57,482 nucleotides of DNA, from contig JACKFX010000001.1 of the NCBI GenBank assembly GCA_020632255.1, positions 124,734 to 182,215 on the forward strand. Reading direction: 5' to 3'. A model generated the notes under the pieces. It ran no database searches and was not told where the DNA came from. It saw only the letters and a program-made list of their open reading frames with translations. Origin of the DNA: Pseudomonadales bacterium. GTDB lineage: Bacteria > Patescibacteriota > Microgenomatia > UBA1400 > PJMF01. Position numbers and translations under genes: made by a program. This document shows positions 14,950 through 25,303 of the stretch, one piece after another. Position 1 is the stretch's first letter. Each line of letters opens with the position of its first letter.

Positions 14950-15294
14950 TTAAAGTTCAGCAATTCTCCGAAAGAAATAGCGGATAAACCTCCATAGTAA
15001 TTTGAATGGCAAGGTGATCAAAGTCCACAGGAGCGGTACTCTATCATCTTCTCCCCTCACCCAGGTTGAGACAACAAGATATTTTTGTTCTTTAGGTAAG
15101 TAGGAAGCAACGGCAAAATGTCGTCTACCGTTTATTGTCTTGATGTATTGGTCGGCGTTTTTTTTCTCATTTTTCACTGTGTCAGGATAGGTGATTGTTT
15201 CCCAAACTGAGTGTCGAGTGATGCTGCGGAGCGCCATGCGCTCCGCAGCATGTTTTGTAAAGATAATATTTTTGTAGGTATCTTGATGAGCCAT
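14950..15294 (-). CDS. DUF4258-like protein with a C-terminal hydrophobic/basic tail
   Basis: IIFTKHAAERMALRSIT...LVVSTW pattern. Confidence 0.7.
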   Translation of the reverse strand: MAHQDTYKNIIFTKHAAERMALRSITRHSVWETITYPDTVKNEKKNADQYIKTINGRRHFAVASYLPKEQKYLVVSTWVRGEDDRVPLLWTLITLPFKLLWRFIRYFFRRIAEL

Positions 15295-15300
15295 ATGTTT

Positions 15301-16746
15301 CTAGTATGCCTGGGCAAACAGCCAACGATGGTTTGCACTCTTACCACAGTGTACACACTTACCCTGCTCTTCTTCAACTGCACCATGAGCAGATGTAAAT
15401 GGTAGACATCGAGTAGTTGCTTTGGTTTCCTCTTTTATTTTGGCTTCGCATACCTCATCTTCACACCAAAATGCTTTAATGAAGCCTCGGTTTGCAGACA
15501 TGATTTGCTTAAACTCATTGAAGGTATTCGCTTCAAACGTTAGGGCATCTTGGCGTTCTTTTGCGGCTCTAAAGAGATTTGTTTGAATAGTCTCAAGCAG
15601 TTCAGGGATACTCTTTTCAAGGTTTGAGATCTCAAGTGATTGTTTTTCATGCGTGTAGCGAACGACTGCGGTTACAGTGTTCTCTGCTAGTTCTCGTGCA
15701 CCAACAATTAATGAAACAGGAATACCTTCAAGCTCTGCATCATTGAGTTTCCACCCCAGTGAGGTTGTGTCATCAATGTTCATTTCAACACGAACACCAG
15801 ACTTTTTAAGTGTATCAACGATTGTTTTCACTACTTCTATGGCTTGAGCATCTTTGCTAGCGTTCATTACAAGAACTTGCGTAGGCGCAACTCTTGGAGG
15901 TAGGACCAAGCCTTCATCATCACCGTGGGTCATGATGAGAGCTCCCAAGATTCTGGTTGAGAGACCCCAACTATTTTGCCACACATACTGAGTAGAATCA
16001 TTTTCATCTTGGAAAGAAATATTGAAAGCATGTATTTTAGAAAAATTTTGTCCTAGATGATGGCTGGTACCAGATTGAAGCGCTTTACCGTCTGGCATTA
16101 ATGCTTCGATAGTTATGGTTACATCTGCTCCAGCAAATTTTTCTGACTCACTCTTTCGACCCTTAATAACAGGAATTGCTAAGTAATCTTCAGCAATTGA
16201 ACGATAGGTCTCAAGCGCCTCGTACATGGTATCGAGAGCTTCTTCTTGGGTAGCGTGGGCACTGTGTGCTTCTTGCCACAAGAATTCTGTGGTACGCAAG
16301 AAGAAGCTAGTACGTTTTTCCCATCTAACCACGTTATTCCATTGGTTAATTTTGATTGGTAAATCTCGATGTGATTGTATCCACTTACTGTACATGTGGT
16401 ACATGATTGTTTCTGAAGTCGGACGCACGACAAGTTTCTCGACAAGCTCTTCTCCTCCAGCGTGAGTGACCACAGCTAACTCAGGTGCGAAACCCTCAAC
16501 GTGATCGGCTTCTTTCTCGAGGAAAGACATCGGAATAAAGATAGGAAAGTACGCATTGCGAACTTTCATCTTATCGAGCATTGGTTGATAGTTCTTTTGA
16601 ATATTCTCCCAAAGACCATAGCCATTTGGACGAATCACCATACACCCTTTGACCGGTGAGTAATCTGCCAGCTTAGCTTGCTGGATGACTTGGGTATACC
16701 ATTTGCTCATGCTTTCAGATTTTGGTGTTAGATCTCGTTTAGCCAT
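15301..16746 (-). CDS. proS: Prolyl-tRNA synthetase, archaeal/eukaryote-like type
   Basis: WYTQVIQQAKLADYSPVKGCMVIRP, RPTSET, FLRTTEFLWQEAH, SWGLSTR; C-terminal Zn motif CVHCGK; no INS editing domain. Confidence 0.97.
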   Translation of the reverse strand: MAKRDLTPKSESMSKWYTQVIQQAKLADYSPVKGCMVIRPNGYGLWENIQKNYQPMLDKMKVRNAYFPIFIPMSFLEKEADHVEGFAPELAVVTHAGGEELVEKLVVRPTSETIMYHMYSKWIQSHRDLPIKINQWNNVVRWEKRTSFFLRTTEFLWQEAHSAHATQEEALDTMYEALETYRSIAEDYLAIPVIKGRKSESEKFAGADVTITIEALMPDGKALQSGTSHHLGQNFSKIHAFNISFQDENDSTQYVWQNSWGLSTRILGALIMTHGDDEGLVLPPRVAPTQVLVMNASKDAQAIEVVKTIVDTLKKSGVRVEMNIDDTTSLGWKLNDAELEGIPVSLIVGARELAENTVTAVVRYTHEKQSLEISNLEKSIPELLETIQTNLFRAAKERQDALTFEANTFNEFKQIMSANRGFIKAFWCEDEVCEAKIKEETKATTRCLPFTSAHGAVEEEQGKCVHCGKSANHRWLFAQAY

Positions 16747-16775
16747 GATTCCTTTCTGTTTCTGGGACTGTACCT

Positions 16776-17036
16776 AAAAAAATAACCCCAGTAAACACAT
16801 ATTTCGTGTTTACAAGGGCTCTCTTGTGAGGGCGGTACCACCTTGTATTTTTCTGGGTATTACTACTCAGAACTTTGTGACTGTCCAAGAGGAGCAGTCT
16901 AGCATATGGTGTCGGGTGCCAGCCGGATATGTTAGCAGTCTTCTCTAAAGAATCCCTGGTTCCACATCGGTTCTCGCAGTGAAGCGACTGTGTGTTAGGA
17001 GCACACAGTATGCGCACCTTGCGCACTAAACCATTA
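16776..17036 (-). promoter_or_regulatory. T-box riboswitch leader of proS
   Basis: Antiterminator UACAAGG-UGGUACC-GCCCUC-ACAA-GAGAGC-CCUUGUA overlaps a terminator hairpin with a U-tract; TATAAT at 17042-17047. Confidence 0.88.
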
Positions 17037-17091
17037 ATGTCATTATACAAAACATTTGGACATCAAACCAGTAGCAATCTTAATAAGACTG

Positions 17092-17991
17092 TTACATCCA
17101 AGCATTTAAGACTTCGGCAAAGAGAGGTGAAGCATCAACAACAGTAACCTTTTCGGGTAAGGATTCATGAGAAATGCTATTGGTGATTACTATGCTGTCT
17201 ATGCTGTCAGTTTGAATACTATCAAGTGCGTTATCAGTGAAAACGCCATGGGTAACTAAAATATGGACTTCGCTGGCTCCTTTTTCTTTAAGGAGCCTAC
17301 TTACTTCAACAACTGTATTGCCAGATAAAATTGAATCGTCAAAAACAACGACTTTTTTACCTTCTACACTTCCACCTTGCATAGAGTTGACACTCACCTC
17401 ACCTGTTGCCAAGTTTCGATGCTTGTCAATATTTACCAGATTAACCCCAAGTGTATCAGCAAACTTACGTGCGCGTTTGAGGCCACCAAAATCAGGACTG
17501 GCTACTACTAGTGATTCAGTTCCAAAGTTGGTTTTGACGTAGTCTGCAAATAGCTCGTTGGCAGAAAGATTTTGCGTTGGAATTGAGAAAAAACCAGGTA
17601 CGCTGCTGTTATGCAAATCAAGTAAAGCAACTCGTTTTACATAGCTATTGGAAACAAGATCTGCCACAACTTTGGCAGCAATTGGTTCTCCAGTTCTAAA
17701 AACTTTGTCTTGAAGGGAGTAGCCCATCCATGGAATGACTGCATTGACATGACGAACTCCGAGTCGTTCAAGTGCATCAGTAATCAGCAAAAACTCCATG
17801 ATGTTTTCATCCGTTGGATGAGAAAAAGACTGAACAAAAACAACGTTCTCACCTGCGAGCTGGTCTTTAATCCAAACTCGTTTTTCCCCATTGGAAAATG
17901 TTGAGATATCAACGGCAACTGACTCTATCCCCAAGTGTTTTTGAAGCGATTGGGCAAATGCGGAGTGTGATGAGCCAGTAATGATTTTCAT
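17092..17991 (-). CDS. prs: Ribose-phosphate pyrophosphokinase
   Basis: FSNGEKRV, IPWMGYSLQDK, LDLHN, VASPDFGG, VFDDSILSGNT, VTHGVF. Confidence 0.97.
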   Translation of the reverse strand: MKIITGSSHSAFAQSLQKHLGIESVAVDISTFSNGEKRVWIKDQLAGENVVFVQSFSHPTDENIMEFLLITDALERLGVRHVNAVIPWMGYSLQDKVFRTGEPIAAKVVADLVSNSYVKRVALLDLHNSSVPGFFSIPTQNLSANELFADYVKTNFGTESLVVASPDFGGLKRARKFADTLGVNLVNIDKHRNLATGEVSVNSMQGGSVEGKKVVVFDDSILSGNTVVEVSRLLKEKGASEVHILVTHGVFTDNALDSIQTDSIDSIVITNSISHESLPEKVTVVDASPLFAEVLNAWM

Positions 17992-21111: not shown

Positions 21112-22389
21112 TCATTTTTTAGTTATGCGATCTGTTCCCACAAAGTCCCGCAGGACTTCTGGTACCACAATACTGCCATCAGCTTGCTGATAGTTTTCAA
21201 TTACCGCAGCTAGTAAACGTGGAGTTGCTGCCATAGTGTTATTTAAGGTGTACACGTGTTTTGTTGTACCATCTTTTGCCTGATACTTAATGCCTAGCCG
21301 GCGTGACTGAAAGTCATTAAAGTAACTGGCTGAGTGGGTTTCGCGATACTTATTTTGGCCTGGGAACCAAGTTTCAATGTCATACTTTTTGCGTTGTCCT
21401 GCCCCCATATCTCCTGTACACATTAACAGAACCTGGTATGAAAGACCGAGGTCTTTTAGAAGTTGTTCGGCAAATGCAGTCATTTTTTCGTGCCACTTCT
21501 GAGTTTCTTCTTCGTCAGCCACTGTGTAGACCACTTGCTCAACTTTATTGAACTGGTGGACACGAATGATACCCTGGGTATCTTTTCCATGTGTTCCGAC
21601 TTCGCGGCGGAAACATGGTGAGATACCTACCATCTTGACTGGCAAGTCGGCTTCTGTTAGGGTTTCCCCCATTCGATATGCTGTGAGTGCAACTTCGGCA
21701 GTTCCTGCTAAAATTTGGCCATCTTGAGTTTTGTAATGGTCCTCTACTCCCCAAGGGAAGTAACCGGTTCCTTCCATGGCATCGTGGTTAACTAAAATTG
21801 GAGCGGTGAATGGCGTAAAGCCCTCTTTAGTCAGCAACTTCATGGCATAGGCAAGAATCGCTTGTTCTAGTAAGACGGCTTCATTCTTGAGAAAATAGCT
21901 TCTAAATCCACCAATGCGGACAGCTCGAACAGTATCGACAAGATCTAACGCTTCCATGAGCTCATGGTGTTGTTTTGGTTCAAAATCGAAGGTGGGCACG
22001 TCACCAACAGTGCGAACAACAACATTACCTTCTTCATCTTCACCAACTGGAACTTCTTCTGCAGGAACATTGGGAATGCTGTACATAAGTGTAGTGAAGT
22101 CTTCTTCGGCTATCTTGAGTTCAGGTTCAATTGCTTGTAGCTGTGTTTTGATATCTTTTCCTTTTGCAATTAACTCAACTGAGGGCTTACCTTGCTGCGC
22201 AACCTCCTGTTTGACTGCATCTGCATTTTGATTAGCTCGCTGACGGAGACCATCTACTTCAACCTGAAGTTTACGGCGTCTTTCATCCACAGCCAATAGT
22301 TCAGCCACAACTGAAACATCGAGCTGTTTATTCTTGCAAGCTGTTTCGACTGTTTTTTGGTTATCTCTGATGAATTGAATATCCAACAT
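21112..22389 (-). CDS. serS: Seryl-tRNA synthetase
   Basis: MLDIQFIR start, N-terminal coiled coil, GTAEV, FRREVGTHGKDTQGIIRVHQFNKVEQ, TLNNT, IENYQQADG. Confidence 0.98.
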   Translation of the reverse strand: MLDIQFIRDNQKTVETACKNKQLDVSVVAELLAVDERRRKLQVEVDGLRQRANQNADAVKQEVAQQGKPSVELIAKGKDIKTQLQAIEPELKIAEEDFTTLMYSIPNVPAEEVPVGEDEEGNVVVRTVGDVPTFDFEPKQHHELMEALDLVDTVRAVRIGGFRSYFLKNEAVLLEQAILAYAMKLLTKEGFTPFTAPILVNHDAMEGTGYFPWGVEDHYKTQDGQILAGTAEVALTAYRMGETLTEADLPVKMVGISPCFRREVGTHGKDTQGIIRVHQFNKVEQVVYTVADEEETQKWHEKMTAFAEQLLKDLGLSYQVLLMCTGDMGAGQRKKYDIETWFPGQNKYRETHSASYFNDFQSRRLGIKYQAKDGTTKHVYTLNNTMAATPRLLAAVIENYQQADGSIVVPEVLRDFVGTDRITKK

Positions 22390-22449: not shown

Positions 22450-22620
22450 AAAAAAACTCTTACCCACGGCCACAAAGCTATGAAGTAAGAGGGTTCAAGT
22501 TTGTGACAAGAACGGTGCCACCTCTTTATACTCATTCCAGCTGTGACGGGCATACCCGGCATGGTTTTTGACCCCATGCAGCATTGGCAGGTGCTAGCTA
22601 CCTCAAGTGCTTTTTTTTAA
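22450..22620 (-). promoter_or_regulatory. Compact T-box riboswitch leader of serS
   Basis: Antiterminator AAGAGG-UGGCACC-GUUC...GAAC-CCUCUU; terminator CUCUUAC...GUAAGAG-U7; stem IIA/B-like CGGGUAUGCCCGUCACAGC; TGCTATACT at 22628-22636. Confidence 0.92.
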
Positions 22621-22785
22621 TAGGAGTAGTATAGCAGAAATTAGTTTTTTGTGAAGTTAGTAGGCAGATCCTTTTTTGTGAGTTTTAGGATGGTCACCAT
22701 ACGCCCCTGAATTAAATAGATCTTCACTTGCTTTTTGTGAAAGTTCATCTTGTATCTGACTTGGTGTAGGAGTTCTTGGAAGAGC

Positions 22786-23215: not shown

Positions 23216-25303
23216 TTATTTTGAAAAGACTTCAATCAAAAAGGCAAAATGTTCATCAGCAGTCTTGCCAATTAACTCCAACCCTTCAGCAATGTCTTCT
23301 CTACTTACATTGGCTGCAAAGGCTTTAGCCTTGAGTTTCTTCTTGATAGATTTTGGTTTCATACCTTCAAGACCAGTTGGTCGCATCAGTGCGATAGCAT
23401 TGATAAAACCAGAGATTTCGTCACAGGCAAATAAATATCGATCTAAGGTTGTGATTGGTTCGCGTCCTGTTCTACTTGGTGCGTGCGCAGCAATGGCATC
23501 AAGAAGCGGTTGTGGATACTCTTTCAAAATTTCATTGATGGCTCTGTTTGGATGCTCATCGGGATACATCTCCCAGTCTAGGTCATGCAGGAGGCCGGTT
23601 TGGTACCAGAGTTCTACATCTTCACCAAGTTCCTGTGCATACGCTTCCATAGCTTGAGCTACCATGCGGCAATGTTTTCGTAGGGCTTCATCTTTGATAT
23701 ATTTTTCTACCAAAGTTTCGGCTTGCTCACGTGGAGGGATTTCAACTGATTCAGTTTTAGAAGTTTTTGAGGTTCCTGCATTAATTGAAGTGAGCGGGCG
23801 TAAAGTTGGGAAGGCGATAACTTCTTTAATGCTCCAAGTGTTAGTAAGGAACATAACCAGACGATCTATTCCCATACCAATTCCACCAAGTGGTGGCATA
23901 CCATGTTCCATAGCTTCGAGAAAGTCTTCATCAAGTGGGTGAGCTTGGGTGTCTCCATGACGCATATTAGTTTGCTCATTTTCCCAAATCTTGCGTTGGT
24001 CAACGGCGTCAACGATCTCACTCCAACCGTCGGCAAGTTCTTTTCCGCCGATGTAGGCTTCAAAGCGCTCTGCAAACTCAGGGTTGCTACGGTGTTGTTT
24101 TGAAAGTGGAGAAATATCGCGTGGGTAGTCAACAATCCAGATTGGAGCAATTAAGTGTGGGGTGACTAACTCATCAAAAAGTTCAAACAATGCTTTTCCT
24201 CGAGTGTACTCACTTTTGAGTTCAATTTTGTGCTCTGCCATTAAAGCTTTCACCTCAGCATCACTCAAAGATTCAAAGTCGATGTTGGCGTGCTGTTTGA
24301 GGGCTTCATCCATGCGTACTCGAGGCCATTTACCCCCAATGTCGATGGTTTTTTCACCAACGATGATTTCATAGTTCCCATAAAGCTTATGTGCCAGGTG
24401 TTTAACTAATGCTTCAGCAACATTCATTATTCGAGTGTAGTCAGCATAAGATTCGTACCATTCAATCATGGTGAATTCAGGTTGGTGGGTTTGGTCAATT
24501 CCCTCATTTCGAAAGTTACGTGCAATCTCAAAGACTCTATCGTATCCACCCACAATCAGCCGTTTTAGATAAAGCTCTGGGGCGATACGAAGGTAAAAAT
24601 CACTATCAAGCGCATCCATGTGGGTAGTAAATGGTGTTGCATTGGTTCCACCATAAAGTGGTTGGAGAATTGGAGTTTCAACCTCCACAAAGTCATGGCT
24701 ATCCTGCAGGAAACGTCGAATTTCTTTTTCAATCAGCCAACGAGCGTCCAAGACACGTTTGGTTTCTGGATTAATGAGCATATCTAGATACCGTTTTCTG
24801 AAACGAACCTCTTTACTGTCTGCAGCATTAAAGGCAGTTGGAATTGGGCGAAGAGCTTTTGAGAGTAAGGTGATTTCTTTAGCAAGAATAGTAATTTCAC
24901 CAGTCCTTGTGGTGATAACAGTGCCTGTCACCCCGAGGTAATCTCCGCGGTCAGTGAGGTTTTTGAGCCAGTCAAAGCTATTTTCAGTAATTTCTCCTTG
25001 TCTGACCATGACTTGAATGTTGGTGGTTGAGTCTTGGAGATCTGCAAAGATTACTTTTCCATGCGCCCGAACAGACATAATCCGTCCTGCAGTGGTCACT
25101 TCTTGGTCCATCATTTCACGAACTTCAGCAATAGTGTTTTGTTTATCGAAAAAATGAGGGTGAACGTTAATGCCCAGCCCTTCGAGCTGAGCACGTTTTT
25201 CTTTTTTGGCTTGAATTGTTTCGTCCATTCGTGACATACCGGCAGTCCTTCTTGAGTTTCGTACTTGGTCTTTTTGGTTATTTTCTGCGTTTTGATTATA
25301 CAT
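23216..25303 (-). CDS. lysS: Class II lysyl-tRNA synthetase fused to a C-terminal HD-domain hydrolase
   Basis: OB domain (AGRIMSVRAHGK), FVEVETP, YLRIAPELYLKRL, FRNEG..THQPEFT, GIGMGIDRL; then about 170 aa with KHCRMV...GLLHDLD. Start may be 25237. Confidence 0.95.
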   Translation of the reverse strand: MYNQNAENNQKDQVRNSRRTAGMSRMDETIQAKKEKRAQLEGLGINVHPHFFDKQNTIAEVREMMDQEVTTAGRIMSVRAHGKVIFADLQDSTTNIQVMVRQGEITENSFDWLKNLTDRGDYLGVTGTVITTRTGEITILAKEITLLSKALRPIPTAFNAADSKEVRFRKRYLDMLINPETKRVLDARWLIEKEIRRFLQDSHDFVEVETPILQPLYGGTNATPFTTHMDALDSDFYLRIAPELYLKRLIVGGYDRVFEIARNFRNEGIDQTHQPEFTMIEWYESYADYTRIMNVAEALVKHLAHKLYGNYEIIVGEKTIDIGGKWPRVRMDEALKQHANIDFESLSDAEVKALMAEHKIELKSEYTRGKALFELFDELVTPHLIAPIWIVDYPRDISPLSKQHRSNPEFAERFEAYIGGKELADGWSEIVDAVDQRKIWENEQTNMRHGDTQAHPLDEDFLEAMEHGMPPLGGIGMGIDRLVMFLTNTWSIKEVIAFPTLRPLTSINAGTSKTSKTESVEIPPREQAETLVEKYIKDEALRKHCRMVAQAMEAYAQELGEDVELWYQTGLLHDLDWEMYPDEHPNRAINEILKEYPQPLLDAIAAHAPSRTGREPITTLDRYLFACDEISGFINAIALMRPTGLEGMKPKSIKKKLKAKAFAANVSREDIAEGLELIGKTADEHFAFLIEVFSK

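Follow-up and report, generated by a model that had tools for sequence, protein, structure and literature searches.

The leader of the prolyl-tRNA synthetase (ProRS) gene proS in a 57,482-nt stretch of DNA from an ultrasmall patescibacterium (GenBank assembly GCA_020632255.1, contig JACKFX010000001.1, positions 124,734 to 182,215; hereafter, the window) is, on the basis of sequence analysis, very probably a functional T-box attenuator that controls proS transcription in response to tRNA(Pro). The leader spans about 260 nt within a 345-nt gap between prs, which encodes phosphoribosyl pyrophosphate synthetase (17092-17991), and proS (15301-16746, ATG at 16746). All features described here lie on the minus strand of the window. 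proS encodes a 481-amino-acid, archaeal-type ProRS that matches the Pfam families ProRS-C_1, tRNA-synt_2b, and HGTP_anticodon. An initial annotation, made from the window alone, had proposed a T-box riboswitch at this position. We find a T-box sequence, an antiterminator, a competing terminator with a U tract, and a codon cognate to the gene. The helices that connect these elements covary among homologous leaders, the terminator and antiterminator folds are mutually exclusive, the codon matches the downstream gene across several synthetase genes, and the bulge base largely agrees with textbook tRNA discriminator bases.

Genomes, metagenomes, and assemblies supplied a set of window-type proS leaders: L001 (=L051), L002, L049, L132, L133, L135, and L139, together with the more divergent L140/L141 and L055. 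The ProRS proteins of leader-bearing homologues are 75-84% identical where measured. A hand-derived structure was scored on an alignment of eight leaders (alignment A2, mean column identity 76%). The antitermination-state structure is paired in 96% of cells and shows compensatory change in 30 of 62 pairs, values that were reached by none of 500 column shuffles. Only 32-43% of cells were paired in a control in which the 3' partners were slid by 1-3 columns. The terminator-state structure gave similar totals on the same alignment. RNAalifold, which was not given the hand-derived structure, recovers the same helices.

Searches for additional members of the window type returned few sequences. The mid-domain pattern TGCTAAC..YCGGC..GCAYCCGA was found in genome contigs only in two already known genomes, and nine other matches were chance occurrences in coding DNA. 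A metagenome scan for the specifier loop combined with the T-box added one leader (L049) and one chance match (L050).

The antiterminator, or discriminator domain (16811-16847), carries the T-box sequence AAGGUGGUACCGCC. Its helix A1 pairs ACAAGG (16846-16841) with CCUUGU (16817-16812) and extends to 7 bp (UACAAGG/CCUUGUA) in the RNAfold prediction. The T-box bulge UGGUACC (16840-16834) separates A1 from helix A2 (16833-16818), which lies inside the bulge-bearing antiterminator. The initial annotation had read this same bulge within a 7-bp A1, and both are present on the minus strand. The antiterminator sequence CAAGGUGGUACCGCCCU is invariant among homologues. The proS leader of L133 (7660-7680) has the bulge UGGUAUC rather than UGGUACC and departs from the normally invariant ACC.

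An intrinsic terminator (16818-16776) overlaps the antiterminator. It consists of a stem, CCCUUGUAAACAC...GUGUUUACUGGGG (16818-16786), with 13 bp and one U-U mismatch, followed by the U tract UUAUUUUUUU (16785-16776), which contains 7-8 U. Since both folds use CCCUUGU, they are mutually exclusive, as had been annotated. RNAfold assigns -18.6 kcal/mol to the terminator and -10.3 kcal/mol to the antiterminator alone. A stronger terminator paired with a weaker antiterminator is the usual asymmetry of T-boxes. The terminator stem and U tract are kept in 8/8 leaders (85.6% paired). A simple promoter and terminator scan flagged nothing in the leader. This miss is not evidence against a terminator, because the rules of the scan bar a stem with a mismatch.

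These features bear on the possibility that the T-box controls translation or mRNA stability, either chiefly in place of termination or in addition to it. Known ultrashort T-boxes are all translational. Among relatives from the Candidate Phyla Radiation (CPR), the start codon follows directly after the U tract in L053, L179, L166, and L226, and the Shine-Dalgarno sequence is buried in L070. The proS leader nevertheless has a classical intrinsic terminator that is conserved in every aligned homologue. Moreover, the proS Shine-Dalgarno sequence (AAGGA, 16754-16750) is found some 20 nt beyond the terminator, outside both the terminator and the antiterminator helices. A mainly translational or stability-based mode of action is thus unlikely.

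The 5' region contains a substitute for Stem I. Covariation and RNAalifold both support a helix, P1, that closes a four-way junction of three hairpins (16969-17032). P1 pairs GGUUU (17032-17028) with GAACC (16973-16969) and is 92.5% paired, with two compensatory pairs. The first hairpin, P0 (UGCGC-AAGGU-GCGCA, 17025-17011), is 100% paired with compensatory change at 3/5 pairs and has a variable loop. The second is the specifier hairpin, ACUGUGUG-CUCCUAA-CACACAGU (17009-16987), which has a stem of 7-8 bp (8 bp in full) and a 7-nt loop. The third, P2 (UCGC-UUCACU-GCGA, 16987-16974), is 100% paired with two compensatory pairs. The loops of P0 and P2 are not conserved, so these hairpins are unlikely to act as a sequence-specific platform.

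The specifier loop CUCCUAA (17001-16995) presents the proline codon CCU (16999-16997), followed by A16996. Its register is N-U-codon-A-N, and its shape is that of an anticodon loop. The stem shows compensatory change at 6/7 pairs, and the loop GCUCCUAAC is invariant in all eight leaders. These observations, together with the cognate loops of serS and other CPR leaders described below, bear out the earlier reading of an 8-bp hairpin that displays a CCU codon. Neither an AGAGA/AGUA specifier-loop motif, nor a distal T-loop motif, nor an AG bulge was found in the 5' region of the proS leader. Because short covarying helices fill this entire region, the leader has no canonical long Stem I. A candidate long Stem I in which both copies of GACUG pair with CAGUC, with a second CCU (16891-16889) in a 3' internal loop, is contradicted by the same covarying helices.

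The elements downstream of the junction follow the order of the Rfam T-box consensus (RF00230): Stem II, IIA/B, purine linker, Stem III, and T-box. Published T-box descriptions give the same element order (PMC7583486; PMC11297988). Stem II (16968-16926) occupies the Stem II position of the RF00230 consensus. Its base helix pairs GAUGUG (16968-16963) with CAUAUC (16931-16926) and is 97.9% paired, with three compensatory pairs. Above it come a 4x4 internal loop (GAAC/CUAA), which is conserved, and then an apical hairpin (16952-16941) with compensatory change at 3/4 pairs; RNAalifold adds a middle helix. Neither a canonical S-turn for Stem II nor a kink-turn (K-turn) for the junction could be assigned.

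A IIA/B pseudoknot (16925-16901) is supported both by its agreement with the RF00230 consensus CGg..cCGU.UA and by covariation. The IIA hairpin, CGG-CUGGCAC-CCG (16925-16913), pairs CGG (16925-16923) with CCG (16915-16913), and these are invariant. In the IIB pairing, GGCA (16920-16917) pairs with UGCU (16904-16901), and the first pair is seen as GC, AU, and GU. Covariants of IIB include GGCA/UGCU, GGCAU/AUGCC, AGCAC/GUGCU, and GGCGG/CCGCU (L055). The segment CCCGACA (16916-16910) resembles the F-box, for which the canonical sequence is CCGUUA. An alternative AUAU/AUAU helix across 16905-16935 was dropped in favor of the pseudoknot, which covaries. The IIA/B element agrees with the linker-loop pseudoknot described in the ileS T-box of Mycobacterium tuberculosis (PMC11297988).

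The pseudoknot is followed by a variable hairpin, GACUG..CAGUC (16899-16879), which is 100% paired with compensatory change at 4/5 pairs and differs in loop and length among leaders. Next comes the linker ACAAAG (16878-16873), in which the alignment columns of AAG (16875-16873) are invariant. This AAG corresponds to a conserved RAG motif located ahead of Stem III in known T-boxes (PMC11297988). The initial annotation had assigned Stem IIA/B to 16873-16899; this segment proves to be the variable hairpin and AAG linker, and the pseudoknot sits at 16925-16901. What had been described as a Stem III-like hairpin (16872-16851) is Stem III, with 92.9% of cells paired and compensatory change at 5/7 pairs.

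We also identified a second T-box within the window (22450-22640), upstream of serS (Pfam Seryl_tRNA_N; probable ATG at 22389). This leader has a likely -10 box (TATACT, 22633-22628) and a K-turn-like base (GCA-CUU-GA-GGUAG...CUGCC-AA-UGC). Its specifier hairpin, GGUAG-CUAGCAC-CUGCC, has a loop at 22597-22591 that contains the serine codon AGC (22595-22593) in the same N-U-codon-A-N register as proS. The remainder of the leader comprises a short Stem II hairpin, a IIA/B element (CGGGUAUGCCCGUCA), the bulge UGGCACC (22520-22514), and a terminator U tract (22456-22450), with no Stem III. The serS leaders of L133, L135, L136, L142, and L159 keep the AGC codon, and their stems covary.

Leaders of other genes provide a comparison for codon choice. 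In distant CPR leaders of proS, or of operons that end in proS, short hairpins are capped by UUCCUAC, UUCCCAG, UACCCCG, UUUCCCG, and UAUCCCG, each of which includes CCU or CCC. A scan with a IIA/B-plus-T-box pattern supplied further CPR leaders, and the identities of the downstream genes were confirmed by NCBIfam. The terminal loop contains GAC in aspS leaders (L164, L165, and L166), AUC in ileS leaders (L160, L168, L179, and L191), GUC in valS leaders (L236 and L245), and GCC in an alaS leader (L226). A cognate codon followed by a purine is present in 19/19 distinct loops (Pro, Ser, Asp, Ile, Val, and Ala). Permutation of gene labels gave a mean of 4.6 matches, and 0 of 200,000 permutations reached 19. 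No serine codon was found in an obvious loop of the serS leader from a Chloroflexia (L243), and no specifier codon could be assigned in L059 and L203.

The bulge base varies with the amino acid. It is U in Pro, Val, and Ala leaders and in every ileS bulge read except that of L191, and it is C in Ser and Asp leaders. These bases agree with the textbook tRNA discriminator bases, A73 for a U bulge and G73 for a C bulge.

The agreement between codon and gene also speaks to the nature of the CUCCUAA hairpin. It might instead be a protein operator (one possibility being tRNA mimicry for autoregulation by ProRS, as known for Escherichia coli thrS) or an anti-Shine-Dalgarno element, accompanied by a T-box-like motif that does not take part in codon reading. 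The loop does have the shape of an anticodon loop, with 7 nt, U at position 2, and a purine at position 6, and CUCCU is similar to the 3' end of 16S rRNA. However, the loop holds a proline codon, not an anticodon. The corresponding loops of serS, aspS, ileS, valS, and alaS leaders hold the codons of their own genes and are not anti-Shine-Dalgarno-like, and other proS leaders (loops UUCCCAG and UAUCCCG) do not contain CUCCU. We consider an operator or anti-Shine-Dalgarno function very unlikely.

Several observations weigh against the proposal that the proS leader is a working transcriptional T-box. First, parts of its structure are atypical. The Stem II internal loop (GAAC/CUAA) is unlike the canonical S-turn (GAA/AGUA). 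No GA/GA K-turn motif adjoins the specifier hairpin; such a motif occurs in the window serS leader and in other leaders from the CPR, among them L053, L063, L160, and L236. According to a 2020 review, transcriptional T-boxes generally need a long Stem I with a tRNA-elbow contact for fast tRNA capture (PMC7583486), and this contact is missing in the proS leader. Second, neither the window nor the CPR loci examined yielded a gene for tRNA(Pro), and the same is true of tRNA(Ser). Third, the ileS leader of L191 (2000-2240) combines the loop CUAUCA, which contains AUC, with the bulge UGGC, which is unfit for A73. tRNA(Ile) usually has A73, and UGGC would need G73. Fourth, the RF00230 model does not match the proS leader at E<=10, in either a 601-nt or a 271-nt query. 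Finally, the leader is absent in close relatives (L052, L136, L137, L138, and L142), whose ProRS is 71-75% identical to that of the window.

The spacing between prs and proS in these leaderless relatives is just 10-50 nt, and L136 and L142 keep their serS T-box. The absence of the leader in close relatives shows that it is dispensable in this clade. The sequence comparison indicates that the proS riboswitch was gained or lost recently within one clade. Loss of the leader in close relatives could point to a decaying, non-functional T-box remnant in the window itself. Yet the eight aligned leaders, in which about one column in four differs, have preserved every helix through compensatory changes, and their functional single-stranded motifs are invariant. 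A non-functional remnant is therefore very improbable.

The Rfam results are best viewed against the behavior of the model on related sequences. Rfam 15, applied at the gathering score, reports just four tRNAs in the whole window and misses the serS T-box as well. Of 11 CPR loci that carry T-box motifs, none scored high enough to pass the RF00230 gathering threshold, while a canonical-looking T-box in locus L114, used as a control, scored 51.3 bits (E 2e-10). Weak matches to the Rfam families gltS, NsiR1, and DapZ reflected mere terminator shape and were discarded. Because the standard Rfam model misses such leaders, annotation of CPR genomes under-reports T-boxes. It is extremely unlikely that the proS leader is an ordinary class I T-box in which a long Stem I (K-turn, internal specifier loop, AG bulge, and distal loop) went unrecognized: its 3' half, from Stem II through IIA/B, AAG linker, Stem III, and T-box to the terminator, is indeed in canonical order, but RF00230 finds nothing where the control is readily detected, the AGAGA/AGUA and distal T-loop motifs are absent, and four short covarying helices leave no space for a long Stem I. 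The statement in the initial annotation that no canonical long Stem I could be found is consistent with all of these results.

For the proS leader as a tRNA(Pro)-responsive attenuator, we infer tRNA binding, charge sensing, read-through, and any role for P0 and P2. Transcription would begin a short distance 5' of 17032, and the tRNA(Pro) anticodon would then pair with CCU (16999-16997) in the terminal loop held by the four-way junction. The junction abuts Stem II and the IIA/B pseudoknot, elements that in known T-boxes form an anticodon-binding groove. If the bound tRNA is uncharged, its 3' ACCA could pair with UGGU (16840-16837), and Stem III and the AAG linker would stack on the complex. The antiterminator would thereby be stabilized, and RNA polymerase would read into proS. 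If tRNA is charged or absent, the terminator (16818-16786 and U tract) would be expected to form, and transcription would stop some 20 nt short of the Shine-Dalgarno sequence.

A likely promoter precedes helix P1. An extended -10 box, TGTATAAT (17049-17042), can be read in the sequence, and TATAAT or TATACT occurs at the same distance in homologous leaders. The transcript would thus start near 17035, a few bases ahead of helix P1. A 103-amino-acid open reading frame (ORF) with a TTG start (16739-17050) spans the entire leader and might be mis-annotated as a gene by gene callers. This ORF is almost certainly spurious, because the RNA structure over the same region covaries.

Genes around the leader provide additional context. 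A SecA gene lies upstream. In a collection of species-representative genomes, the nearest ProRS genes (80% and 76% identity) come from Candidatus Pacebacteria and from further Patescibacteria, which places the window in the CPR, close to Candidatus Pacebacteria. A small gene encoding a DUF4258 protein (14950-15294) directly follows proS, and this order is kept in all close relatives examined (L133 and L135-L142). The window also contains a third synthetase gene (23216-25303). It is not preceded by a T-box, and it encodes an aminoacyl-tRNA synthetase of class IIb. Its product combines tRNA-synt_2 and an oligonucleotide-binding (OB) fold with a C-terminal HD domain, a fusion that is also present in L135, L136, and L137.

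Some distant proS operons include additional genes between the T-box and proS. In L075 (880-2489; Candidatus Amesbacteria), a T-box with the loop UUUCCCG precedes a gene encoding DUF1893 fused to ArgZ-like C-terminal domains, which is followed by proS. We take the ArgZ-like domains to be ornithine-cyclodeaminase-like and the gene to be a possible proline-synthesis gene. This operon may therefore place proline supply under the control of a proline T-box. In L035 (2440-2962), L059 (1900-2464), and L070 (1990-2491), a gene for a small CsaA-like tRNA-binding-domain protein follows the T-box and directly precedes proS. The assignment is confirmed by Pfam tRNA_bind for L035 and is based on sequence similarity for L059 and L070. 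In L070, an alternative helix hides part of a GGAGG Shine-Dalgarno sequence and no U tract is present; judged by these features, this leader looks translational.

CPR-like T-box leaders also occur in contigs with other taxonomic titles. These include contigs titled uncultured Gammaproteobacteria or Pseudomonadales (L035, L055, L058, L059, L063, L162, L165, L184, L230, and L245) and one titled 'Vitreimonas sp.' (L159). The ProRS proteins of L035, L055, L058, L059, and L063 are 54-57% identical to the window ProRS, which is the range of Patescibacteria-labelled loci. The taxonomic labels of these Gammaproteobacteria, Pseudomonadales, and Vitreimonas metagenome-assembled genomes look wrong.

The initial annotation had remarked that this lineage is not usually associated with T-boxes. 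A literature search, which was incomplete in coverage and leaves an earlier description elsewhere possible, returned no paper linking T-boxes to Patescibacteria or CPR, in line with that remark. The search likewise found no description of riboswitch-level regulation in Patescibacteria. We tentatively propose, with a confidence that falls a little short of even, that Patescibacteria possess a broad T-box family of their own, minimal in design, whose members read a codon in a terminal loop resembling an anticodon loop, serve six or more amino acids (Pro, Ser, Asp, Ile, Val, and Ala), and mostly use terminators, and that a four-way junction replaced the K-turn within the proS clade of the window.

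If this proposal is correct, a T-box can control transcription with no elbow platform in Stem I, and neither ileS nor Actinobacteria has exclusive claim to the ultrashort design. P0 and P2 might then add contacts or pre-organization that speed tRNA capture during transcription. The proS leader and its relatives are probable counter-examples both to the need for a long Stem I in transcriptional control and to the confinement of the ultrashort design to translational ileS leaders of Actinobacteria. CPR leaders also offer compact candidate tRNA sensors (about 180 nt for the serS type, from likely promoter to terminator end) and natural swaps of specifier and discriminator over six amino acids. 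Finally, they are candidate native regulatory parts for Patescibacteria, in which inducible systems are wanted (PMC11665869).

The proS leader belongs to the T-box superfamily by virtue of its discriminator, and it lacks both the Stem I of class I and three features of the ultrashort class (association with ileS, a translational platform, and a K-turn). Ultrashort Stem I T-boxes, in which the specifier is located in a terminal loop, have been described for translational ileS leaders of Actinobacteria (bioRxiv 10.1101/2023.02.28.530422). The corresponding class II model of TBDB was searched in Actinobacteria only (PMC7778990). The initial annotation had proposed an atypical T-box with a terminal-loop specifier; the atypical architecture is supported by our analysis, while the terminal-loop design was already known from this ileS class.

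Comparison with the ultrashort ileS class (Mycobacterium smegmatis and M. tuberculosis; TBDB class II) reveals several common elements. Both types have a terminal-loop specifier and no distal elbow platform, and both contain Stem II, a IIA/B pseudoknot, a linker, Stem III, and a UGGN bulge. They differ in codon, expression platform, and lineage: the proS leader is a patescibacterial element with a proline codon and an intrinsic terminator, whereas members of the ultrashort class have been reported to control ileS alone, to use a sequestrator for translational control, and to come from Actinobacteria. An intrinsic terminator, rather than a sequestrator, is common to the proS leader and most of its CPR relatives. 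A four-way junction (P1, P0, specifier hairpin, and P2) also stands in place of the K-turn of the ultrashort class, and the Stem II internal loop of the proS leader does not carry the AAGAA/AGUAGAA S-turn signature of the Mycobacterium leaders. Mycobacterium ileS leaders have the form GC-GUC-GA-UCCGG-[CCAUCA]-CCGGG-GA-GC, with no U tract. The CPR ileS leaders L160 and L237 have a Stem I nearly the same as that of Mycobacterium ileS, and the window serS leader is of the same form.

Canonical T-boxes (RF00230; the Bacillus subtilis tyrS type) likewise regulate aminoacyl-tRNA synthetase genes by means of a codon that matches the gene. The proS leader has counterparts of the T-box, bulge, terminator, Stem III, AAG, IIA/B, F-box-like CCG, and Stem II of these systems in canonical order; its Stem II internal loop and F-box-like segment depart from the canonical sequences. 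It lacks their K-turn, internal specifier loop with S-turn, AG bulge, and distal loop. The glyQS T-boxes provide another example of a reduced, transcriptional system (PMC7583486). In glyQS the long Stem I is kept and Stem II and IIA/B are absent; the proS leader shows the opposite arrangement, in which Stem II and IIA/B are kept and the long Stem I is absent.

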